In this document: one piece after another, positions 6,944 to 25,691 of the stretch
How positions within the stretch are numbered: position 1 is the first letter of the stretch
Layout: each line of letters starts with the position of its first letter
NCBI GenBank assembly: GCA_963783435.1
Contig: CAWANQ010000004.1
Span: 148,560-212,559 of the forward strand
Length of the DNA stretch: 64,000 bases
From: an uncultured Bacteroidota bacterium
GTDB taxonomy: Bacteria; Bacteroidota; Bacteroidia; Bacteroidales; GCA-2748055
Direction of reading: 5' to 3'
Program-made: the position numbers and the translations under genes
Notes under the pieces: generated by a model
The model's input: only the letters and a program-made list of their open reading frames with translations
Told to the model about the DNA's origin: nothing
Databases searched by the model: none

Positions 6944-6972
6944 CTTCCGGAAAAAAGGGAAAGTCTTCCGAA
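6944..6972 (-). promoter_or_regulatory. Phased direct-repeat operator, site 1 (CTTCCGGAA-N12-CTTCCGAA, 21-bp phase)
   Basis: TTCCGGAA at 6945 and TTCCGAA at 6966, exactly 21 bp apart, 78 nt upstream of the start at 6867. Same architecture and orientation as sites at 16499, 21958 and 22111. Confidence 0.55.
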
Positions 6973-13374: not shown

Positions 13375-16300
13375 CTAGCGTTTAACAACCTTTCTTTTGG
13401 CCGATTGCCCCCCGGTTTTTACTTCGACAATGTAAATACCATTCGGGAAATCACTCATACTTACCAAACCTGTCGGATTCTTATCGGTGAGCAGTAATTC
13501 ACCCACCATACTATAGATCCGGATCTTTTCAATCCCTTCGCTAGCTTCAACTCTGATTTGATCTGTTGCAGGATTAGGATAGATCAATACAGCGCTATTT
13601 CCTTTATTCTCTGAAACTGATGTGTAGTCGGGAATTGTGCCAACTGGTGCTAATTCTTCAGGCTCGAAACCAATTTTCTCAACGGTAATTACCGTTTTAT
13701 TAATACTGCTGATTTCATAACCTCCCGTTACCGGGTATGTAACCGAGTCTGAGCCGAAAGTGCCCTGAATGTAGTATTCAAAGTCATATCCGGGATCTGC
13801 CAATGAAGCCGTCATAACGTAGCTGCTGTTATTTACAGGAGTAAGTGATATTGAAGAAAATGGGCCTGATGCACCTATTTTACGATAGTACATAGTTGGA
13901 TTTGCGACGGTCCCATTACCCATAAAGATTACTTTCTGCACAAAGTTTTCATTCTCATTTATCTGGGTAATTTCAGGGTAAGCCCGTACTGCATTATCTG
14001 CTTCAAATGTCACATCACGTTCTGTAATATCATACTCTCCTTTAAATAATCTGTCCCAGGTAGACTGTTGTAATTGGGCAATAACACCAAGCTCTGAGAC
14101 ATTTCTTACGCGATTTATTTCATGTTCCATTACCTTGGCCCAGGTTTTTATTATACTATCTTTTCTGGCAGGTGTGCGATCTTCCGCTCTATAAAAATAT
14201 TCATGAACTACTAATTTACTTAACTCAAGCTGAGCTTGAAAAAAATGATACCAATACAGGTATCGATCTATATTTCCCGTTCCAACAATATCGTCTTTGT
14301 ATGAACAAAACTGGGTATATACATACATGGCGTCAATAAAGGTCGGGTCTGTATAGTCTACAATATCACCGTCGTCCAACCAAAATTCAGTAATTGAACT
14401 TGGAAGCCATCTCGCCACCTTTGGAATACCCCCTTTTAATCCTCTCCGTATTTGATGAGATTCTCCTAATCTGTCGGCCATGGCCAGAAGCGACCCTATC
14501 TCATCTGATCTCTCAGGACCAAAATTAGCCTTTGCCCAGTCCTGATAATGTTTAGTAATCCAATTTACAAAACTGGGATCCTGACTCTCCAGCGGAGCAT
14601 CCCACTTATCAAAAAAACGGTATTTTTCAGCTCCCTCTGCAATACTAAGTAAATCACCATCCACGGTAGCCTTGTTATCCCAGGATAATTTTGCGTGGGC
14701 CAAAGAGGCTGGGGCAATAGAATTAACACGCCAATGTTTGGCAACCAGTGCCTGTGTTCCGCCAGCTCTCAAACCGGCCCCTACTTCAAACCAAGCATCC
14801 ATAGCTCTTAACTGAGGTTGTACAAGTCCCCAGTCCTCTTCGTACCAAACAGAAGACCACCCTTCACGACCAGCATCGATAACCGGCTTAATTCCCTGAG
14901 CATCATCCCATAATGTTCCAAATGGAACATCTAAGGGCAAATCGTCGTGAAATTCCAGTGAAGACCCGTATCCGACACTTCCAACCCTCCAGCCAAAGGT
15001 GGCCATTTTGATTGGCGTTTCCATTTTAGTCATAACTTCATTACAGTACCTGTAATCATCCGCAACAGCCTCAATCGCTTCATCATTTGTTCGATCACCC
15101 CCATAGGTCATCGTTTCGAAAGTCCAAAGCCAGAAGTAGTCCAACGGATGGGTACGCGCAATTCGGGTAAACAGCCCTTCATACATTCTTTTTGCAAACA
15201 CTTCGTTGGTATATCCTCTTGAGGTAGGCAAGGTTAATCCATGCACCTCTTGTGCCCGGTTTTGCACATCAACAGGTGTATAGTGAACTCTGTCTTGATA
15301 AACCTCTCTGTTATGTTTTGGAAGAAAACCCATTGGAGCAGTACTGCCCAATGCTGTTTTTACACCCAGTTGTTTGGCATGTGTGAACGATTCTCTTAAT
15401 AATTCCCCCACTTTATTGAAATTTGCCGCTTTCTCAGCTGGAGTAAGCGGTAGTTTAAAACCAATAGCCTCAGATGCTGCCTCATCATATGGAAACAGTC
15501 TATCCGCTCCATTGGTGAAATCGCTTGTTTTTATGGGTTCATTACTCCATGAATGATTCGCCCGGAATGTACTGGCCCAATAAGATTCATAAGCCGCCTC
15601 TGGCTTTACAGTTCCATCACTATTGACATCATCTCTATGACCAACCCATAAATGTGGTTCCGGCCCTTCCTTTGAATAATTTATAAATTCACCGTCACCG
15701 TCTACTCCAAGCGGCCCATATTGGTCATATTCACCATATACATGTAATCCGAAGAAGTTAAAACCCATTTTGGCTTGCTGTGAAATAAATGATTTATAAT
15801 CATTTGTCTCCCAAAGATCCGGACCAGCTAGAAAATTATGAAAAGGAAGACAACCACGCAATTCAAACCAGGGTTGGGCTTTTTCATCGAAATTGCCAAT
15901 ATCCAGCGGGAAGGTCAATTTCTGATCAGGAATAACATCTCCTGCTAGATTAAAATGACAACCAATAAGTTCGGCAAACCGGTATGCTGCATTCAAGGTA
16001 GTCAGCGTATCAGCACCGACGAGTACCAGTACATTTCTACCGTCTTTATTAATTGATTTAATTATATACCCATTGCGCTTATCAGAAGCTGGAGCATCCA
16101 CATTCCCATAATCCTGTTTTAGCTCAGTAATAATCTCGCGGCTGTTTCCAGAAACTACGATAACATCTCCCTCTGGTAAACTATTATATGTGTCTGCAGT
16201 AGCGATATCCGGAGCTGTTCCGGTACGAAGAAAGATATACCTCCTTAGCTCTTTGGCAGCCTGTAATTCAGTCTTTGATCCATCGCCCGGATAAACAATT

Positions 16301-16395
16301 GTTTGGGCTCCTAATTGAGAGGCAGAGAAGAGAATGATCATAACCAGCGAAAACTGTAATGCATGTATGGTCGGGAGGTGATGGTTCTTTTTCAT
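13375..16395 (-). CDS. Large secreted glycoside-hydrolase-like protein of unrecognised family, with a T9SS CTD
   Basis: 1006 aa with a signal peptide. The N-terminal module (LNAAYRFAELIGCHFNLAGDVIPDQ) resembles N-terminal domains of GH20/GH67/GH115-type enzymes. The central region has a TIM-barrel-like character (MGFNFFGLHVYGEYD, DYFWLWTFE, WYEEDWG). The C-terminus LIYPNPATDQIRVE..GIYIVEVK is a T9SS CTD. Confidence 0.8.
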   Translation of the reverse strand: MKKNHHLPTIHALQFSLVMIILFSASQLGAQTIVYPGDGSKTELQAAKELRRYIFLRTGTAPDIATADTYNSLPEGDVIVVSGNSREIITELKQDYGNVDAPASDKRNGYIIKSINKDGRNVLVLVGADTLTTLNAAYRFAELIGCHFNLAGDVIPDQKLTFPLDIGNFDEKAQPWFELRGCLPFHNFLAGPDLWETNDYKSFISQQAKMGFNFFGLHVYGEYDQYGPLGVDGDGEFINYSKEGPEPHLWVGHRDDVNSDGTVKPEAAYESYWASTFRANHSWSNEPIKTSDFTNGADRLFPYDEAASEAIGFKLPLTPAEKAANFNKVGELLRESFTHAKQLGVKTALGSTAPMGFLPKHNREVYQDRVHYTPVDVQNRAQEVHGLTLPTSRGYTNEVFAKRMYEGLFTRIARTHPLDYFWLWTFETMTYGGDRTNDEAIEAVADDYRYCNEVMTKMETPIKMATFGWRVGSVGYGSSLEFHDDLPLDVPFGTLWDDAQGIKPVIDAGREGWSSVWYEEDWGLVQPQLRAMDAWFEVGAGLRAGGTQALVAKHWRVNSIAPASLAHAKLSWDNKATVDGDLLSIAEGAEKYRFFDKWDAPLESQDPSFVNWITKHYQDWAKANFGPERSDEIGSLLAMADRLGESHQIRRGLKGGIPKVARWLPSSITEFWLDDGDIVDYTDPTFIDAMYVYTQFCSYKDDIVGTGNIDRYLYWYHFFQAQLELSKLVVHEYFYRAEDRTPARKDSIIKTWAKVMEHEINRVRNVSELGVIAQLQQSTWDRLFKGEYDITERDVTFEADNAVRAYPEITQINENENFVQKVIFMGNGTVANPTMYYRKIGASGPFSSISLTPVNNSSYVMTASLADPGYDFEYYIQGTFGSDSVTYPVTGGYEISSINKTVITVEKIGFEPEELAPVGTIPDYTSVSENKGNSAVLIYPNPATDQIRVEASEGIEKIRIYSMVGELLLTDKNPTGLVSMSDFPNGIYIVEVKTGGQSAKRKVVKR

Positions 16396-16498
16396 ATTGC
16401 CTTAATTTAGATAAGAAAAATTAAATCAGCTACGTGGACTTTTTGATTTATACCACACCATAAATTTAATTTTGATCCCTTGCTAATTGCTGAACTAT

Positions 16499-16527
16499 TT
16501 TCCGGAATAACAGGAAATCCTTCCGAA
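16499..16527 (-). promoter_or_regulatory. Phased direct-repeat operator, site 2
   Basis: TTCCGGAA at 16500 and TTCCGAA at 16521 (21-bp phase), 105 nt upstream of the start at 16395. Confidence 0.55.
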
Positions 16528-16610
16528 TTATCAGGAGCTGAATATCCAGCCACCAACTCCAACAATTTGTGAGCTTGCAGGGATAGATTAGATATTGACT
16601 CCCTTCACTG

Positions 16611-16689
16611 TAATACATAACCGGATTTGTTATATTGCCATTACCCAGGAATATTACATTTTGTTCAAAGGACTCATCTTCATAGATCT
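16611..16689. repeat. 79-bp perfect direct repeat, left copy
   Basis: Identical base-for-base to 19345..19423 (TAATACATAACCGGATTTG...CTTCATAGATCT). It overlaps the GH3 stop codon by 2 nt. Confidence 0.95.
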
Positions 16690-19114
16690 ACTTATTCTCT
16701 TCTATAAATTTTGCGGTTAACAATTTGTTTGTGTCTACAGAAATTTTTCTTGGATTATTGCTTCCATTTAGATCTCCACTCCAACTATCAAATTTCCATC
16801 CTTCTTCTGGAATAGCAACAATTGTTATGTCAGTTCCTGCGGTAAAGCTGCTAAGTGATTTATTAATAGTAATGCTGCCTTGTCCAATTGTATTGGTTGA
16901 TATATTATATGTTATAGTATTACTTGAAGACAGCTCTATAGAAGCTGTTTTTTTTATATCAGCTGATGAGGCTCCTAGCTGAATTTGGAAAGTGCCATCT
17001 TCTACTTTCCAGCTTGAGCTAACAGTATCCCAATGTGTAAAATCATCTCTGCTTAATGTAAAATCTACGGATTTGGTCTCACCAGCTTCAAGGTTTATGC
17101 GTTTAAAAGCTCTAAGTTTTTTCGAAGGTTTTATCAGATCTGAAGTAGGACTTTTGACATAAAGCTGAACGATTTCATCACCTCCTCGATCACCTGTATT
17201 GGTTACTTGAATAGATACAGATAGCTTTTCTGAAAAGTTGGCTGCATTTAAACTTGTTGATGTTAAATTCAGGTTATCGTAGCTAAAGCTTGTATAACTC
17301 AATCCGTATCCAAATGGGAATTGCGGTTCTTCTTTAAGAAACCAATAGGTTCTTCCTTTAGAAATATCGTAATCGTTCATAGGGAAAAGCTGTTTAGTTG
17401 ATGCATAAGCTGTTTGTGAAAGTTTTCCGCCCGGATTGTAATCGCCAAATATAACATCAGCAAGCGCTTCACCTATTCCTTGACCACCATAGCTTAGAAA
17501 GAGTAATGAGTGCACGTTTGATGGCACAGGAGGCACATGAGAGCTTATTAAAAGAACAACTGTATTAGGGTTGGTGATATTTTTCAATAATTTGACATAT
17601 GTAGCAGGCATCTCTATTTTTTTCAAGTCACTACCTTCTCCTGCACCTTCGTCAGAAATAACTATAATAGCTGCATCTGCACTATTTGCTGCCTTAACAG
17701 CTGTTTGATAATCGTCTGCTTTTCTATTTTCCCATTCTGTATACCCATTGTAATGAGAAACCATTGTTTCAGGGCCAACTTTATTTTTTATCCCATCATA
17801 TACTGTTATAACATTATTTTCATCGGGCATACCATAGTAGCCTCCATATAGATTTTCTTTAGCAAAAGGACCAAGCACAACAATATTTTTTAAAGCGCTT
17901 TTATCAAGTGGTAACACCTTGTTTTTTAATAGTACAGTTCCTTCTTTGGCAATTGTGTTAGATATTTCATGGTGTTTTTTAGAATTTAATAGGGAATCAG
18001 GAATATTGTCATATGGTGTACTATCATCAAACTCTCCAAGGAGGTAACGAACAGTAAATAAACGGATAACAGCTTTGTCGATATCTTCCGGGGTAATGCC
18101 TAGAATCCCTTTTTGCACAGCACTTTCCAAGTAGGTGTTATAAGCCAAACCCTGCTCTGAGCCCTGAGCTTCTGCACATGACAAATCCAATCCAGCCATA
18201 GCAGCTAGAGCAACAGCTTCTTCGGGGTCCATACCATGCTCATAAATTAAATCTTCAGTGGCTCCGCAGTCAGAAACCACAAGACCTTTAAAATCCCATT
18301 CCGTACGTAATACATCTGTTAAAAGAAATTTGCTGGCAGAACAATGGTCACCATTTAAACCGCTATACGCACTCATAATTCCAAATGTTGGACCTTCTTC
18401 AACAGAAGTTTTGTATGCCGGGAAATAATACTCTCTTAACCACCTTTCAGGTACTATTGAATTACCTTTAGGAAATTTTGTTTGACGAACTGATTCATAA
18501 TTGTTGGCCACAAAATGTTTATGGTTGGTTACTGTTTTCAAATAGTTTGTATTACCTGCATCCTGCATACCCAGACAAAAAGCTAATGACATTTGTCCCA
18601 TTAAATAAGGGTCTTCGCTGTAGCCCTCATCGTTACGTCCCCAACGAGGATCTCTAAGTATATTAATGGTTGGAGAAAAATAGTTGAGTTTTTTTCCATA
18701 TTGGTTATGAAGTATTCTTGCTTCTGTAGAAATAGCATCTGCCATGGTCTGAATTAATTCGGGATTCCAGGTGCAGCCCATTGCAAGCGGCGCAGGAAAG
18801 ACAGTAGCTGCACGATCTTTTTCAACCACTCCATGCAATGCTTCGTTCCACCAGCCGTCCGATTCTTCAAAACCATCTGAATCTTGATATTCCAGAACTG
18901 GTGGTTCAGTTGAGACAATTGCAGGAGCCCGATGAGACATTTGGGAGACTTTTTGAGCAAGTGTCATTTGTGAAACAAGTTTTGTTGCTTTTATCCTTGC
19001 AGCTTCAATCGCTTCTGGTGATATGCTTGTCCCGGTTTGGGCTTTTACTGGTGTTATTATATTCAGTAAAGCAATTAGTAAAAAGCCTAATATGAATAAT
19101 TTTCTTGTTTTCAT
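16688..19114 (-). CDS. GH3 beta-glycosidase (beta-glucosidase/xylosidase type) with a C-terminal repeat domain
   Basis: 808 aa with a signal peptide. GH3 blocks RDPRWGRNDEGYSEDP, KHFVANNYE, and GLVVSDCGA (nucleophile Asp region). The C-terminal ~70 aa (GWKFDSWSGDLNGSNNP) looks like a bacterial repeat/InlB-B-like module. Confidence 0.92.
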   Translation of the reverse strand: MKTRKLFILGFLLIALLNIITPVKAQTGTSISPEAIEAARIKATKLVSQMTLAQKVSQMSHRAPAIVSTEPPVLEYQDSDGFEESDGWWNEALHGVVEKDRAATVFPAPLAMGCTWNPELIQTMADAISTEARILHNQYGKKLNYFSPTINILRDPRWGRNDEGYSEDPYLMGQMSLAFCLGMQDAGNTNYLKTVTNHKHFVANNYESVRQTKFPKGNSIVPERWLREYYFPAYKTSVEEGPTFGIMSAYSGLNGDHCSASKFLLTDVLRTEWDFKGLVVSDCGATEDLIYEHGMDPEEAVALAAMAGLDLSCAEAQGSEQGLAYNTYLESAVQKGILGITPEDIDKAVIRLFTVRYLLGEFDDSTPYDNIPDSLLNSKKHHEISNTIAKEGTVLLKNKVLPLDKSALKNIVVLGPFAKENLYGGYYGMPDENNVITVYDGIKNKVGPETMVSHYNGYTEWENRKADDYQTAVKAANSADAAIIVISDEGAGEGSDLKKIEMPATYVKLLKNITNPNTVVLLISSHVPPVPSNVHSLLFLSYGGQGIGEALADVIFGDYNPGGKLSQTAYASTKQLFPMNDYDISKGRTYWFLKEEPQFPFGYGLSYTSFSYDNLNLTSTSLNAANFSEKLSVSIQVTNTGDRGGDEIVQLYVKSPTSDLIKPSKKLRAFKRINLEAGETKSVDFTLSRDDFTHWDTVSSSWKVEDGTFQIQLGASSADIKKTASIELSSSNTITYNISTNTIGQGSITINKSLSSFTAGTDITIVAIPEEGWKFDSWSGDLNGSNNPRKISVDTNKLLTAKFIEENK

Positions 19115-19119
19115 AAGGA

Positions 19120-21855
19120 TCAGAAGTCGACATTCTCAACAGTAATGACGGTTTTATTAATGTTATCGCTATCATTTCCACCCGTTACCGGATAGCTTAC
19201 CGTTTCTCCGTCTATAGAACCTTGTATGTAATATTCAAAATCATAACCCGGATTATCCAGATTGGATTTTCATGACATGCAGTACTGCTTTCAACAGAAG
19301 TAAGCGCTGAGCTTGAGAACGAGCCGTCAGTTCCAATCTCCCGATAATACATAACCGGATTTGTTATATTGCCATTACCCAGGAATATTACATTTTGTTC
19401 AAAGGACTCATCTTCATAGATCTGCGATATTTCAGGCATGGCTCTAACTGCACTTTCCCCCTCATAGGAAGTATTCAAATCAGTAATTCCATAGCGATCT
19501 CTGCATATATTATCCCATGTAGCCTGCTGTAATTGAAGGATTACTCCTAATTCTGATATATTTCTTACGCGTTGTATTTCATGTTTCATAATTCTCCCCC
19601 AACAAGCTATCAGGCTGTCTTTCTCTACGCTGGTCATCCCATCTTTCTGCAGCTGCGCACGATGACAGGCGAATCTGCCCATTTCTATTTGTGATTGAAA
19701 AAAATGATACCAATACATATAGCGGTCTTTGTTCCCGGTACCCACAATGTCATTCTTATAGGAGCAGAACTGATTATATATATCAAAAGCTTCAGCAAAC
19801 TTGCCCGTAAATGTCGTTGGTTCACCTCTGTCCGGATCGCTTGCTCTTATTACACTTGGTGCGGGTTCCCATGTTGAGATTGTTGGTATGGCATTTGGTA
19901 CTCCTGCCATAGGAGGTTTTGGCTCTCCAGCTCTATCCATTGAAGCTAATAGGTTTCCAATCTCAACGGACTTTTCCGGTCCAAAATTAGTTTTTGCCCA
20001 ATTCTGATAAAATTCCGTTATCCATTTTACATACACTGAGTCTTGTTCCTCGGTATTTCTCTGGAAGATATCTACTTCTGGAAAATGCTTGTTCTTCATC
20101 GCAATTCATTTGAAACAATCTCCCTGTTTTCCCAAACTAATTGTGCATGAGCTGCAGATGCAGGTGCTACTGAGTTAATACGCCAATGTTTGGCTATCAG
20201 AGCCTGCACACCTCCGATATCTAATCCAGCTCCTACTTCATTCCAGATTGTTGTAACTCTAAACTGAGGTTGGATCATACCCCAATCTTCTTCATACCAG
20301 CACGAAGACCATGCCTCACGACCCGCATCAATAACCGGCTTCAATCCTTCAGCCCTGTCCCAGAGTGTGCCAAATGGAACATCCAAAGGTAAATCATCAT
20401 GAAACTCTAATGGGCCCTTTCCTTTTGGTTGTTTAGTTCCCACAGTTCCCACTCTCCATCCAAATGTGGCTAATTTGAAGGGAGTATTCATCTCATTCAT
20501 TACTTCATTGCAATATCTGTAATCATCTGCAACGGCTTCAATTTGCTGTTTTGAGAGTCTGTGACCGAGATAGGTCCAGGTTTCGTAGGTCCAAAGCCAG
20601 AAATAATCCAGAGGGTGAGTCTTCATTATACGTGTAAATACTCCCTCATATAGTGCCTTTGTGAAAGCCTCGTTTACTGAACCTCTTTCTGTTGGTAAGG
20701 TAAAGCCATGAACATCTCTCATTCTGCTTTGTACATCCGGTGGGCAAGAGTGGATCCAGTCTGTTTCAACTAAGTGCTCTGGAATTACCTGGCTCAAAGC
20801 CCATCGGAGCTTCTGTCCCAATGGCCGTTTTAACACCCAGCTGGCGGGCATGTGAAAACGCATCCTTAAACATAAATCCCACATTGTTGAAGTTTGCTGC
20901 TTTTTCTGAAGGAGTTTCGGGCTCTTTTGAACCTATTGCTTCGGAAGCAACATAATCATTGACAAATAGTTTGTCGGCCCCACTGGTAAATTCCTTTGTT
21001 GTTACAGGAGCATACCCCCATATGCCTTCATTAGGATTACCCGCATAGAAATCACCCTTACGAAAAGAACTTGCCCAGTATGATTTATAAGCAGCCTCTT
21101 CTTTAACCGTGCCATCATCATTCAAATCATTTTTATGACCTATCCAGATGGAGGGTTCCGGTCCTTCCTGTGAGCCTTTAAATCCATTCTGGTTGTAATA
21201 ATGGAGACCAAAGAAATTAAAACCCATCTTCGCCTGTTGCGTAATAAATGATTTATAATCTTCAGTATTCCACAAATCAGGTCCGGTTGGAAAATCATGA
21301 AAGGGCAGACTACCTCGCAATTCAAACAAGGGTTGTGATTTCTCATCATACCCGCTCAAGGGAATTGGATAGCTTAACTTTTGATCAGGAATAACATCTC
21401 CTGCCAGATTAAAATGACAGCCTAATAATTCTGCAAATCTATAGGCCGCATTCAGGGTGGTTATTGTATCCGCTCCTGTAATGACCAGAATATCTCTTCC
21501 ATCATTTTTATTCACCGATTTTATCAGATAGCCCTTCCTGTTATCACTATCCGGAGCATCTACATTTCCGTATTCCTGCTTAAGTTCTGTAATAATATCC
21601 CGACTATCTTCCGAAACGATGATTACATCACCTTCAGGTAAACTGGCATATTGGTCTAGCAGTAGCGATCTCCGGAGCAGTGCCTGTGCGGAGGAAAATG
21701 TATCTTCTTACTTCTTTTGCTGCCTGGATTTCGGTGATCGATCCATCGCCAGGATAAAGCACCGTTTGGGCATTTAAATCACATGCTGAGATGAAAATAA
21801 ATACCAGAAACAACTTTATTCCATTAAATGCTGAGATCCGGTTGCTTGTTTTCAT
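19120..21855 (-). pseudogene. Pseudogenised tandem paralog of the 1006-aa hydrolase-like gene
   Basis: ORF fragments 21634..21942, 20766..21515, 20096..20884 and 19212..20099, plus an unannotated tail, are colinear with ORF 13375..16395. Examples: AQTVLYPGDGS../AQTIVYPGDGS..; TTLNAAYRFAELLGCHFNLAGDVIPDQKL; THPLDYFWLWTYE; VRNISELGVILQLQQATWD. They sit in at least 4 different frames. The first shift is an extra A at ~21655-21660 (GCT-A-GAC). The gene ends VITVENVDF* at 19120 and lacks the CTD. Confidence 0.85.
19345..19423. repeat. 79-bp perfect direct repeat, right copy (inside the pseudogene)
   Basis: Identical to 16611..16689. Here it encodes IYEDESFEQNVIFLGNGNITNPVMYY of the pseudogene. 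Confidence 0.95.
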
Positions 21856-21957
21856 TGCTTTGGTCTTTACCTTTGTTAAAGCACTTTCAATTTTAAAAGA
21901 TTGGCTTGTAGCTGTATATAAAAATAGACCCAATTTCTTCAATAAGACTGAATTATC

Positions 21958-21986
21958 TTCCGGATTAATAGGAAATACTTCCAGAA
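21958..21986 (-). promoter_or_regulatory. Phased direct-repeat operator, site 3
   Basis: TTCCGGAT at 21958 and TTCCAGAA at 21979 (21-bp phase), ~103 nt upstream of the pseudogene start at 21855. Confidence 0.5.
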
Positions 21987-22110
21987 TTGCAGTTTGTGAA
22001 ATTCCAATCCTTAGGCCCTGATTCTATTCTTAACGGGAGACAATCAAGCTCATTACCAAATTGGTTTTTATTGATTTCTACCCATTAGGAATGCTATAAT
22101 AACTCCATTA

Positions 22111-22188: not shown

Positions 22189-23499
22189 ATGCTGATACTG
22201 AAAAACAACAAGACACTTCTTATTTCTGTAGTGACAATTCAGGCTTTTCTAACACTTGCCTGCACCAGGGCAAATCCAGGCATCGAATTGGATCCCCTGG
22301 TAATTGAGGGGCTCAAAGAACTCGGTTCCATTGAAGGATTTAAACCCTATGGGGCTAATCCGGTCTTGGCCACCGGACCCGAAGGATCTTTCGATGCAGG
22401 AGCACTGGGTTCTATGACTGTAGTTCTCGTTGACAGTGTTTTTCATCTATACTACGAAACCTGGGGAGTGCGGTCCGATGCCGAATGGGATGCGGATGAA
22501 TATGAATCTTTGACCGTGGGACATGCAATATCCCACGATGCTATAAACTGGAACAAAGATCCCGAAAATCCTGTTCTTGAAAGCGGTGGAGAAGCAGACT
22601 TTGACTACACGGGCGTATGGGATCCCTACGTCTTGTATGAGGATGGGGTCTTTAAAATGTGGTATGGGGGAGGCGGTGGCAGCCAGCCTAATCTGGGATG
22701 GGCCTATGCCACCTCTACCGATGGTACACATTTCGATAAACAGGGATTGATAGGGATCGGGAATCCCACCGGAGTGGAAGATTGTCATGTGGTTTTCGAT
22801 ACTGAATCGGGCCTTTATTATATGTACTACTGGTATGGATGGGATGAACCGGAAGGGCTCTATCTGGTCACTTCACCCACCGAGACAGGATTCAATTTCA
22901 ATGAAAAAATCCCTGTCAGGATCAAGGGAGACGATTCCTACATGAAAAAATTCGGACATGTGTTACGTGACAAAATGGGTTGGCACATGTTCTACTCCAA
23001 TTTTGTTCAACCCCATTGCCCGAACAGCATCACCCGCTATGCATATTCAACAGACGGGATCCACTGGGAGGCAAAGAATAAAAGATTGGTAAAGGGGCAT
23101 GATTCGGAAGTTTTAAAAGTCAGGGATGACCTCTTCCTGATGTTCTCCAGTCCCCGGAATGGCTTCGACAGGGTGGACTGTGACATTCGCCTTGCCATTT
23201 ATAGTGGAACACTGGAAGACCTTGCCAATAAAGCACCATTCTTTGAACTGCCTCAGGAAAGCAGCTTGTCAGGAAAAAAAATCACGATCAAAATACGGGA
23301 TGAGGAAGCCCTTGCTTTTCACTTCAAAGATGAGGGAGAAGTGGTTCTCTCGGAGGATACCAACAAAGAGGATCCATATACTTTTAACGCGCTATTTATT
23401 CATAAGGGGGAGCAGGTAATAATTAGCGGAGAAGGGATCAATCTGTCCGGGACCTATAATGGTAAAACACTTATACTGCGCGACAATGATACTGATTAA
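22189..23499 (+). CDS. Beta-propeller-fold glycoside-hydrolase-like lipoprotein (GH43/GH117/GH130-like clan)
   Basis: 436 aa with a lipobox (LTLAC). Repeated blade-like motifs FHLYYETWG, VWDPYVLYEDGVFKMWYGG, WAYATSTDGTHF, YYMYYWYGW, YAYSTDGIHW. Family assignment is uncertain. Confidence 0.6.
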   Translation: MLILKNNKTLLISVVTIQAFLTLACTRANPGIELDPLVIEGLKELGSIEGFKPYGANPVLATGPEGSFDAGALGSMTVVLVDSVFHLYYETWGVRSDAEWDADEYESLTVGHAISHDAINWNKDPENPVLESGGEADFDYTGVWDPYVLYEDGVFKMWYGGGGGSQPNLGWAYATSTDGTHFDKQGLIGIGNPTGVEDCHVVFDTESGLYYMYYWYGWDEPEGLYLVTSPTETGFNFNEKIPVRIKGDDSYMKKFGHVLRDKMGWHMFYSNFVQPHCPNSITRYAYSTDGIHWEAKNKRLVKGHDSEVLKVRDDLFLMFSSPRNGFDRVDCDIRLAIYSGTLEDLANKAPFFELPQESSLSGKKITIKIRDEEALAFHFKDEGEVVLSEDTNKEDPYTFNALFIHKGEQVIISGEGINLSGTYNGKTLILRDNDTD

Positions 23500-23531
23500 C
23501 CATAGAATTTAATCCAAACTTTAATCGGAAA

Positions 23532-25691
23532 ATGAAAAAACTAAGTTTTGTATTGCTGGCCTGTTTGACAGGGATAAGTACGGTTTTTGCACAGAAACCT
23601 TTAGCTCACTGGACCTTTGATGATATTAGAGTAGAGCGGAAAACTGTTGAAATGGTCCGGGGAGAAACCTATGTGCCCAAAGAAGTATTTGCCTACGTAA
23701 AGGAATCCGTCTCCGGAAAGGAAAATGAACTGCATGGTGTATACTATAAGGCAGTGCCTGGTGTGGTTGGAAATGCAGCCCTGCTGGATGGATATACAGC
23801 CTACCTTGAATTACAGATGGGCCAGGGTAAAAACGATCAATCATCGGGGGACCACATACCCCACATTACAGAAGATTTCACCATTGAAACATGGGTCGCA
23901 CTGGGAGCCTACCCGAAAAATATATGTCCGATCCTTGATAACCGAAGAGATGAAGCAGACGGGTACTACAATGGTTACAGCATGGAAATGGATGCCATGG
24001 GGCGCCTTGTACTGAAGGTTGCCACTGAAGGCAAATATGAAATAGCCATGTCGCATGAGACCATCCCTTTGAACGAGTGGACGCATCTGGCTGCCAGCTA
24101 CTCAAAAGAAAAGGGGCGCCTGGCAGTCTATGTAAATGGAGAACTAAAGGATGAAACCTTTGCAAGAGAGGCTTTCAAGCCAACTGCACGAGACTGGCAT
24201 TTTACATCTTTGCTCATCGGCAAGAGCAGGGCAGCCATGCGGCCCTACGGAACCATCAGGCCCGAAGGTACAGAGACGTCCTTCACTTTTATTGACGGCA
24301 TCCTGGATGAACTGAAACTTTATGAAGCAGCACTTGGTGATAAGCAGGTTGCTGAGATTTACAAGAGTCAGCGAATAACTGACGAACCTGAACTTCCCAA
24401 ACGTATTCTCCCATCGGGGCCCCAGTCACCAGGAACATTCCGGGCGGTGAATACACGCCTGAAGTATTACGAAGGGTGGGATGCCCCCTGGGCGATCCAT
24501 GACAATGCAGATATCGTTGTACAATTTGATGAAACAGACTGCAAATTCGTATTCTGGCATGGAACAAGCTATATTCCCTCCTGGGTGACGGAGAATAATA
24601 TCTGGTTCAACAATGGATTTAATGAGGGCTGGAACGAACATGGAAGCTGTGAGCCCATGTCTGATAAAAAGGCGAAATATTCCAGTGTAAAGATCGTTGA
24701 AAGCAATGAGGCACGCGTGGTGGTCCAGTGGCGTTACGCGCTGGTGGATGTAACAGGTATATTCGCTTTTGAAGATCCGGTTACCGGATGGGGTGACTGG
24801 ACCAACGAGACTTTTACTATTTACCCGGATATGGTTGGAGTGCGTGAAGACCTCCTGCTGAGCAATGCGCCCAATGCAGCCCATGAATGGCAGGAGAGCA
24901 TGATGGTCCTTGCCCCGGGTCAACGCCCCTCCGAGGTTTTGAACTTTGAGGCACTTTCCCTGGCAAATATCAAGGGTGAATCAAAGACCTATTCCTGGGA
25001 GCATGAAATACCGCCCCATCTCCCGCCCTATCCTGAAGAGCCGGTGGTGCAGGTGGTCAATACAAAATCGGAATACCATCCTTTCTCAGCGCTTAGACCG
25101 CAGGATGATCCTGGGATCGATATTTACAGCGGAGAGATCCGCAGAGATGTAGATGTTTTTCCCTGGTGGAACCACTGGCCCGTGGCCCCTCGGCCAACCG
25201 ATGGACGCTATGCAATGTTCGAGGACCGTGCAGCGCATGCATCGGTGTCACATTGGCTCTGGGACCCGTACAAGGTAACGGACCGGTCCATGACGAAATT
25301 GATGCTGAACGGAATGACCAATAAACCGGTTGAAGAACTCATTCCTGTAGTAAAAGCCTGGTCAAATCCTGCCGATATCATCCTGGTTGAGAAAAGTCAC
25401 AGTGCAAGCTATACACCCGAAGAAAAGGCCTATACCATCAATCTTTCCGGTGAAGTATCCAGCCTGGATTTCACACTAAAGGGCAGCGAAGATTCACCAA
25501 TCGTGAATCCGGCCTTCGTAATTGAAAACTGGGGCAATGCAGGCCTTGAAATCATGGTGAATGGAGAAAAAATAGAGCGGGGAAAGAATTTCAGATATGG
25601 ATTGCGGGAGTCGCTCGACAATCGTGACCTGATCGTTTGGCTGCGCATGGAGTCAGAAGAGGAAGGCAAATTCTCATTGCAGAAGAAATAG
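23532..25691 (+). CDS. LamG domain fused to the recurrent uncharacterised domain (paralog P2, the fused archetype)
   Basis: 719 aa with a signal peptide. Residues ~20-280 are LamG-like (FTIETWV, VYVNGELK, IDGILDELKLY). Residues ~290-719 carry the family blocks ARVVVQWRYA, GDWTNETFTIYPD, PWWNHWPVAPRPTDGRY, NPAFVIENWG, VNGEKIERGKNFRYG. Confidence 0.85.
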   Translation: MKKLSFVLLACLTGISTVFAQKPLAHWTFDDIRVERKTVEMVRGETYVPKEVFAYVKESVSGKENELHGVYYKAVPGVVGNAALLDGYTAYLELQMGQGKNDQSSGDHIPHITEDFTIETWVALGAYPKNICPILDNRRDEADGYYNGYSMEMDAMGRLVLKVATEGKYEIAMSHETIPLNEWTHLAASYSKEKGRLAVYVNGELKDETFAREAFKPTARDWHFTSLLIGKSRAAMRPYGTIRPEGTETSFTFIDGILDELKLYEAALGDKQVAEIYKSQRITDEPELPKRILPSGPQSPGTFRAVNTRLKYYEGWDAPWAIHDNADIVVQFDETDCKFVFWHGTSYIPSWVTENNIWFNNGFNEGWNEHGSCEPMSDKKAKYSSVKIVESNEARVVVQWRYALVDVTGIFAFEDPVTGWGDWTNETFTIYPDMVGVREDLLLSNAPNAAHEWQESMMVLAPGQRPSEVLNFEALSLANIKGESKTYSWEHEIPPHLPPYPEEPVVQVVNTKSEYHPFSALRPQDDPGIDIYSGEIRRDVDVFPWWNHWPVAPRPTDGRYAMFEDRAAHASVSHWLWDPYKVTDRSMTKLMLNGMTNKPVEELIPVVKAWSNPADIILVEKSHSASYTPEEKAYTINLSGEVSSLDFTLKGSEDSPIVNPAFVIENWGNAGLEIMVNGEKIERGKNFRYGLRESLDNRDLIVWLRMESEEEGKFSLQKK

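Follow-up and report, generated by a model that had tools for sequence, protein, structure and literature searches.

Genes and features at the locus

The stretch of DNA analysed here (the window, 64,000 nucleotides in length) belongs to an uncultured Bacteroidota bacterium of the order Bacteroidales (assembly GCA_963783435.1, contig CAWANQ010000004.1, positions 148,560 to 212,559 of the forward strand), and the feature under study is a perfect 79-bp direct repeat, called R, whose two copies bracket a 2.65-kb interval carrying a gene of glycoside hydrolase family 3 (GH3). The setting is a fucose/sulfated-glycan locus, where this GH3 beta-glycosidase gene lies between two neighbouring paralogs, the upstream pseudogene P2 and the downstream gene P1. 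On the minus strand, the order is P2 pseudogene, a 5-nt gap, GH3, the left copy of R, 215 nt of non-coding sequence, P1 and a sulfatase. The closest relative of P2 comes from an NCBI genome (GCA_029935835.1, contig JAPOGW010023394.1; this locus is called L035), whose P2 protein (P0163) shares 86% identity with the conceptual P2 translated from the window. The main features, in the order of their coordinates, are the following.

13375..16395, minus strand: P1, the downstream paralog, intact, 1006 aa, with a C-terminal sorting domain (CTD; Pfam PF18962 / TIGR04183) of the type IX secretion system (T9SS)
16396..16587, minus strand: original P2-P1 intergenic spacer and P1 promoter region, identical to the L035 spacer at 172 of 192 positions, without gaps
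16588..16610, minus strand: T2, with which the resident P2 gene ends (23 nt), (ATTA)CAGTGAAGGGAGTCAATATCTAA, read as ITVKGVNI and stop, the ATTA being shared with the left copy of R
16611..16689, minus strand: left copy of R, the putative templated copy where the GH3 insert is joined on its right-hand side
16688..19114, minus strand: GH3, 808 aa, with a Sec signal peptide, GH3 N- and C-terminal domains, an Fn3-like domain and one Flg_new_2 (InlB B-repeat), and no T9SS CTD
19120..21855, minus strand: P2 pseudogene, the upstream paralog, L035-like, about 93% identical in nucleotides over most of its length
19345..19423, minus strand: right (source) copy of R, lying inside the coding part of the P2 pseudogene (IYEDESFEQNVIFLGNGNITNPVMYY), identical to the L035 P2 at 73 of 79 positions

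The 79-bp repeat

A repeat search of the window aligned 16611-16689 with 19345-19423 as a direct repeat, identical at 79/79 positions and with a start-to-start distance of 2734 bp, and a whole-genome search found only these two copies in the 6.39-Mb, 25-contig assembly. The left copy opens within the GH3 stop codon TAG (16690-16688), which its first two bases, AG, complete. The original prediction, drawn from the bare sequence, had described the perfect repeat with these coordinates, a left copy beginning 2 nt inside the GH3 stop codon and a right copy made of an internal coding piece of the pseudogene, and on all of these points it was borne out. Exact repeats of 79 bp are not in excess genome-wide by self-BLAST, the sole further 79-bp match being an overlapping tandem repeat with a period of 51 bp.

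No inverted repeats were found at the ends of the 2.65-kb interval, and no open reading frame (ORF) for a transposase or recombinase in or next to it, GH3 being the sole ORF inside and P2, P1 and sulfatases the neighbours. A target-site duplication left by a transposon or insertion sequence was rejected on the length of the repeat (79 bp against 2-14 bp) and on the lack of both inverted repeats and a transposase. A terminator-like site was likewise not found on the coding strand between GH3 and P1.

P2 ends at its native stop codon

The P2 frame closes with a TGA at 19122-19120, and the GH3 ATG follows at 19114, which leaves a gap of 5 nt. The original prediction had placed this stop correctly in the immediate vicinity of the GH3 start, at a distance that has to be corrected from 6 to 5 nt. 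It had also read this geometry, with a frame that stops after VENVDF, as the mark of an event that placed GH3 into the 3′ end of the upstream paralog, and this second claim does not hold for the P2 frame. P2-type orthologs from three metagenomic/NCBI contigs (P0163, P0166 and P0153) are proteins of 899-911 aa that lack PF18962 and end in VITVERVEK, VILVEKVAF and VITVKNAGF, respectively, as compared to VITVENVDF in the P2 of the window, and the P2-type ortholog of a genome of the same genus (G022, contig C70) ends in INKTVIIIKKTAT, also without PF18962. The position of the stop codon is common to the P2 orthologs of G022, L035 and two further loci (L036 and L037) and to the P2 of the window, which indicates that the stop after VENVDF is the native one of P2 in agreement with all four orthologs and, consequently, that GH3 did not insert within the P2 reading frame. 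At the level of annotation, two ideas are to be corrected, as the pseudogene, judged by its orthologs, is not truncated and has lacked a T9SS tail from the outset.

When compared with the four orthologs, the lesions of P2 consist of six extra bases only (at 21657, ~20778, ~20100/20099, the latter two adjacent, 19282 and 19266), none of them within a homopolymer, with neither deletions nor nonsense substitutions. Once these six bases are removed, P2 reads through 909 codons to its native stop. Such an all-insertion spectrum is contrary to the usual deletion bias of bacterial pseudogenes.

The sequence beyond the left copy is a P2 tail followed by the spacer

In a three-way alignment (A2), the window arrangement 'GH3 end / R / ATTA·CAGTGAAGGGAGTCAATATCTAA / spacer / P1' is colinear with the arrangement 'R / 200 nt / GTGATTACAGTAGAGAGAGTCGAAAAGTAA / spacer / P1' of L035, the 200 nt of P2 that separate R from the tail in L035 (a gap of 200-202 in the alignment) being missing in the window. 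This colinearity identifies the 23 nt after the left copy of R as the final codons and stop of a P2 gene, reading ITVKGVNI in T2 and ITVERVEK in L035. T2 matches the L035 tail at 20/27 positions and T1, the tail that precedes GH3, at 17/27 and, contiguous as it is with the spacer, it is on sequence grounds an L035-type allele.

The same segment had been taken in the original prediction for a decayed remnant of a T9SS CTD (SEGSQYLIYPCK), a reading that dissolves into the P2 tail, its stop codon and the spacer when these are read in the frame of the repeat, one base off. The 'LIYP' of that earlier reading corresponds to the stop codon plus the first bases of the spacer in the repeat's frame. No Pfam match was obtained for the sequence after the left copy at E <= 10 in any of the three frames, and a Smith-Waterman alignment to the P1 tail gave a score of 20, with a shuffle mean of 18.8 and 98 of 300 shuffles reaching the score. 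A CTD remnant was rejected, as shuffle-controlled nucleotide alignments to the CTD-coding ends of P1, of the P1 of G022 and of a GH3 paralog were all at chance level. The spacer itself harbours an operator-like motif (16500-16524) that recurs upstream of P2 (21958-21982). A third, weaker copy of this operator-like motif, GGAAGnATTTCCnnTTAnTCCGGAA, is found at 6945-6969 on the minus strand with 3 mismatches, whereas none would be expected by chance in the window.

An empty site in the closest relative

The L035 locus shows an opposite-strand GH43-like gene, an intact P2 (910 aa), the 192-nt spacer and the start of P1, without GH3. Such an arrangement, with nothing but the spacer between P2 and P1, indicates that GH3 is a gain or loss difference at exactly that spot. 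A look at synteny in related genomes had been proposed together with the original prediction, and the question raised there, whether GH3 is missing between the paralogs, is answered in the affirmative by L035. The order is P1 - sulfatase - (esterase) - P2 in G022, L036 and L037, where GH3 is also lacking at the corresponding loci; G022, with the order P1 - sulfatase - P2 and no such GH3, is the sole genome of the same genus with close P1 and P2 orthologs. Exact-pattern scans of metagenome and genome contigs with the spacer motif and with the first 28 nt of R yielded no closer relatives or donors.

On a larger scale, the P2-spacer-P1 block of the window (15883-22005) is ~89-93% identical to L035, identity drops to 64-84% across the first ~300 nt of P2 and the region upstream of it, and the divergently transcribed GH43-like neighbour (window 22236-23580) is only 75% identical. 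From the difference between block and neighbour, the sequence of the whole P2-P1 block looks like a segment recently exchanged between otherwise more distant genomes.

A switch of lineage at the end of P2

The P2 of the window is 90.6% identical to that of L035 over 2.9 kb, and the spacer together with the start of P1 is 89% identical. Distances to L035 along P2, read towards its stop codon, are distributed in the following way.

21400-20400: U1, distance 0.056
20399-19424: U2, distance 0.072
19423-19345: R, distance 0.076
19344-19173: M, distance 0.112
19172..19120, minus strand: T1, the last 53 nt of the P2 frame, ending in NINKTVITVENVDF and stop, 5 nt before the GH3 ATG, distance 0.340

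These last 53 nt are nearer to L037 (0.226) than to L035 (0.340), a switch of nearest relative at the end of P2 that is significant by Fisher's test (p = 0.0014), and the excess divergence persists after correction for the generally faster evolution of this gene end (Poisson p = 0.0013). Moreover, a comparison of the conserved INKTVITVE codons between T1 and the tail of L035 gives 4 synonymous changes and no non-synonymous one, which argues that the two tails are long-standing functional alleles and not decayed copies of each other. T1 is of another lineage than the rest of P2, and it was probably imported together with GH3. The adjacent M (19344-19173) was also considered as foreign and rejected, since its distance of 0.112 is only ~1.5x that of the upstream segments and matches the higher variability of M in all pairs. 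Taken as a whole, the window reads as a mosaic of an L035-like P2 body, a foreign T1 plus GH3, R, and an L035-like T2, spacer and P1.

The two copies of R differ at 0/79 positions and the two tails, T1 and T2, at 10/23 (Fisher p = 5e-8). The R of the window differs from that of L035 at 6/79 positions, and the two genome-specific substitutions (19371 C and 19356 G) are both present in the left copy. For a left copy dating back to the split from the L035 block, the probability of 0/79 differences would be ~0.002. Both the perfect identity and the genome-specific substitutions indicate that the left copy was made recently from the resident P2. The suggestion in the original prediction that the event is recent thus stands, for the event or at least for the repeat, given 0/79 differences between the copies against 6/79 to L035.

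The GH3 gene

The GH3 protein matches PF00933 (2.5e-44), PF01915 (4.2e-41) and PF14310 (3.5e-24) in a scan of Pfam, with NCBIfam also covered, and its translation contains GLVVSDCGA, which is presumably the GH3 nucleophile motif. A comparison of the GC content and codon usage of GH3 with those of its neighbours had been suggested with the original prediction, and the composition of the gene is exceptional: GC is 0.377, GC at third codon positions (GC3) is 0.257, the lowest among 384 long ORFs of the contig, and the codon-usage distance lies at the 97th percentile. GC3 is also low in P1 and in the P2 of L035 (0.34-0.35, versus a contig mean of 0.48). Among 5.8e9 proteins, no homolog of GH3 above 47% identity was found, the nearest being at 47%. 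The public gene call (P0001, 759 aa) begins 49 codons downstream of the ATG at 19114 and so omits a good Sec signal peptide, MKTRKLFILGFLLIALLNIITPVKAQ.

In two search lists, 9/10 of the Flg_new_2 proteins other than GH3 also carry a CTD. As the GH3 stop codon was put together at the junction itself (T + AG), these sequences suggest that GH3 may have lost a CTD there. A GH3 paralog of 1084 aa, 44% identical to the GH3 of the window, lies on the same contig ~2-5 kb before the start of the window (G000:C4:143546-146760) and carries a T9SS CTD along with a pair of Flg_new_2 repeats and one additional domain, being the CTD-bearing version of such an enzyme in this genome.

With regard to expression, no promoter is recognisable in the 5-nt gap, which makes GH3 presumably dependent on the P2 promoter/operator, from where it would presumably be transcribed via 2.7 kb of untranslated pseudogene. 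P1 retains its own operator downstream of the left copy of R.

A proposed origin of the arrangement

The reading favoured here, with a probability of roughly 0.55, is the import of a P2-like tail plus GH3 by an event that was homologous on one side and illegitimate on the other, with 79 nt templated at the illegitimate junction. The ancestral layout would have been that of L035, with a P2 devoid of CTD, a 192-nt spacer and P1. The incoming foreign DNA would have consisted of the last ~55-80 nt of a P2-like gene, the 5-nt gap and GH3, and the short distance from the T1 stop to the GH3 ATG would look like a native operon junction of the donor. On the left side, a homologous crossover would have taken place in the conserved 3′ part of P2, at ~19.2 kb, where 49 nt in a row are the same as in L035, up to 19197. 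On the right side, the DNA would have been joined illegitimately ~25 nt before the resident P2 stop, and a filler or patch of 79 nt would have been copied into this junction from P2 sequence located 200 nt upstream of the break. This filler would be fused to the resident tail via the 4-nt ATTA and to the end of GH3 with an overlap of at most 2 nt (AG); R ends in GTATTA and the resident context in L035 is GTGATTA/CAG, the ATTA thus being common to both. The resulting product would be P2(A-R-M)-T1-GH3-R-T2-spacer-P1.

We infer that a single event made the whole structure, and that the DNA entered by homology-facilitated illegitimate recombination (HFIR). According to the summary given in PMC6382021, HFIR occurs in naturally transformable bacteria with junction microhomologies of 3-10 bp (de Vries & Wackernagel 2002; Prudhomme et al. 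2002; Meier & Wackernagel 2003). The marks of this process are present at the locus, namely a lineage switch inside a shared gene, over a short stretch, a 4-nt microhomology (ATTA) and a foreign cargo: the insert is anchored by homology on one side, in the 3′ part of P2, has the ATTA microhomology on the other, and is of foreign composition. Unlike in HFIR, the junction of the window holds a 79-nt templated copy of nearby resident sequence, and the event is deduced from one genome plus one relative. In SPDIR (short-patch double illegitimate recombination), ectopic short single strands of intragenomic origin are integrated at microhomologies (bioRxiv 10.1101/2023.11.22.568220), and the left copy of R is similarly a short ectopic piece of intragenomic DNA at a non-homologous place, with microhomology at one junction. 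In this case, however, the overlap at the GH3/R end is of at most 2 nt, and the patch borders a 2.5-kb foreign insert instead of otherwise unchanged sequence.

Campbell-type integration (attL/attR) also leaves identical direct repeats around an inserted gene, which recombination between them would remove, and it had been offered in the original prediction as one of two possible origins, the other being an illegitimate event. The latter fits the data, whereas a plain Campbell crossover at the 79 bp was rejected on the 200 nt of the empty site, on the presence of the genome's own substitutions in the left copy and on the lack of a recombinase gene in the insert. The left flank directly adjoins R in L035, and M (200 nt) parts R from the right flank T2, unlike the empty site of such an integration, where R would adjoin both flanks; the insert of the window is moreover without an integrase, and the left copy is of the resident type. 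The join points of tandem duplications and amplifications resemble the locus in that a direct repeat flanks a gene in an amplification-ready architecture, but the window has a single intervening segment and two P2 tails of different lineages.

Several points weigh against the import of a P2-like tail with GH3 as described above. The comparison depends on a single close relative, L035, so that the difference may be a gain in this genome or a loss in L035, and a GH3 protein search of 5.8e9 proteins brought up no donor in which this GH3 follows a P2-like gene. The lineage switch is based on 53 nt at the end of a gene, a part that evolves fast. A templated filler of 79 nt is long for bacterial illegitimate junctions and its left junction is almost without microhomology. 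Both junctions are known from the assembled sequence. The six frameshifts of P2 imply that some time has elapsed since the gene last worked, which fits a little awkwardly with a very recent event if P2 was not broken beforehand.

Alternative explanations

Unlikely, although the foremost among the alternatives, is an older and complete duplication, by which a Campbell-type crossover or unequal exchange would have doubled R-M-tail around GH3, after which slippage involving the imperfect repeats TAACAAA..ATTACAG would have removed 200 nt from the second copy, with R kept or made identical by gene conversion. L035 would then either never have had GH3 or have lost it by recombination between the two copies. 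That two P2 tails flank GH3 speaks for this scenario, as do the derived states common to T2 and the tail of L035, which would follow from retention of the second copy's tail in L035. The end of R also resembles the pre-tail sequence over ~22 nt, a good substrate for the deletion, and BLAST runs the alignment of the L035 tail into R, to 16632. The scheme needs three or four events, however, and a Campbell crossover should leave the donor's R on the left, yet the left copy is identical to the resident one and the tail beside GH3 is 34% diverged from L035. The conversion tract would have to span all 79 nt up to both novel junctions, the probability of 0/79 differences is ~0.002 for a copy as old as the L035 split, the L035 tail is under purifying selection (4 synonymous, 0 non-synonymous) instead of decaying like junk, and the insert has no recombinase gene. 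Somewhat less probable still would be an origin in two steps, in which GH3 with its P2-like tail was first joined to the resident tail and the 79-nt patch was added later, in a SPDIR-like manner, from the nearby P2 during replication. It accounts for a perfect R beside strongly diverged tails and for the ATTA microhomology at the R/T2 junction, and the mechanism is documented for intragenomic donors (bioRxiv 10.1101/2023.11.22.568220), but the later patch must have hit the older junction exactly. Without the 79 nt, GH3 would read 7 codons into T2 (ENKSVKGVNI and stop), which is possible but uninformative, and the present data are the same as those expected from the one-step import.

An artefact of assembly, such as mis-joined strain variants (for instance, with and without GH3) or an error of consensus or polishing, is improbable. 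Its plausibility derives from strain heterogeneity in the bin (contigs C1 and C23 share 12.8 kb at 98.4%, and contamination is 2.98%), from the six odd single-base insertions of P2 and from the fact that the repeat and its junctions rest on the assembly; furthermore, 79 is among the k values used by some de Bruijn assemblers. However, 79-bp exact repeats are not in excess and no alternative contig exists for the locus, while assembling it requires both junction sequences in the reads, and the flanking GH3 and P1 are intact. Within contigs that reach 1.1 Mb, the assembly also resolves a perfect tandem duplication of 818 bp as well as near-identical repeats of 5-12 kb, so that the reads behind it probably exceeded both the 79 bp and the 2.7-kb interval by far. 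The least credible of the alternatives is a functional element, either a repeat pair designed as a switch for excision or amplification of GH3, or a left copy with a role as an RNA or as a regulatory element in the stretch from GH3 to P1. RecA-dependent deletion or amplification can be supported by direct repeats of 79 bp, and the left copy does sit between GH3 and the promoter motif of P1, but the site has no recombinase gene, inverted repeats or terminator-like hairpin, R is an arbitrary internal coding piece that is not conserved as an element elsewhere, and the deletion would yield a broken gene.

Two further regions of the assembly, both outside the window, deserve mention in relation to its quality. 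At G000:C7:479573-481202 there is a perfect tandem duplication with a unit of 812 bp and the same 209-aa ORF in each copy, just downstream of a 400-aa ORF that resembles, by eye only, a tyrosine recombinase; the copies either arose by duplication very recently or reflect a fault of the assembly. In addition, G000:C1:4943-17734 and C23:26311-39100 share 12.8 kb at 98.4% identity, which suggests that the assembly includes a second strain or a haplotig.

Consequences for the locus

The feature is a well-resolved but ordinary scar of recombination (a structural variation), and no new kind of element. R itself is without a function of its own and could serve as a substrate for possible RecA-type deletion or tandem amplification of the 2.7-kb GH3 segment. 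The original prediction held that recombination between the copies would precisely excise GH3, and the gene would indeed be removed, but the ancestral state would not be restored: the deletion product, P2-R-T2, lacks 200 nt of P2 and is out of frame.

If the favoured one-sided import is correct, the locus offers a clean natural example of how one gene for a carbohydrate-active enzyme is fitted into a polysaccharide-utilisation operon that was already in place, with both junctions readable to the base and the empty site preserved in a relative. The import would have taken over the promoter and operator of the neighbouring gene, which has since decayed. As a far-fetched extension of this scenario, GH3 might be a small homology-armed cassette (P2-like end, 5-nt gap and GH3) that moves between fucoidan-type polysaccharide loci belonging to different lineages by one-sided homologous capture, with R keeping it poised for sub-populations to delete or amplify GH3 according to substrate supply.

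The paralogs flanking GH3 belong to a small family, with 134 clusters at E <= 1e-30 in 5.8e9 proteins, found chiefly in marine metagenomes and in Verrucomicrobia/Bacteroidota. Apart from the CTD, the family has no Pfam, NCBIfam or PDB match, and its distant members bear the GH67 N-terminal domain PF03648. Two forms exist in the family, one with a CTD, at times accompanied by Flg_new_2, and one without it.

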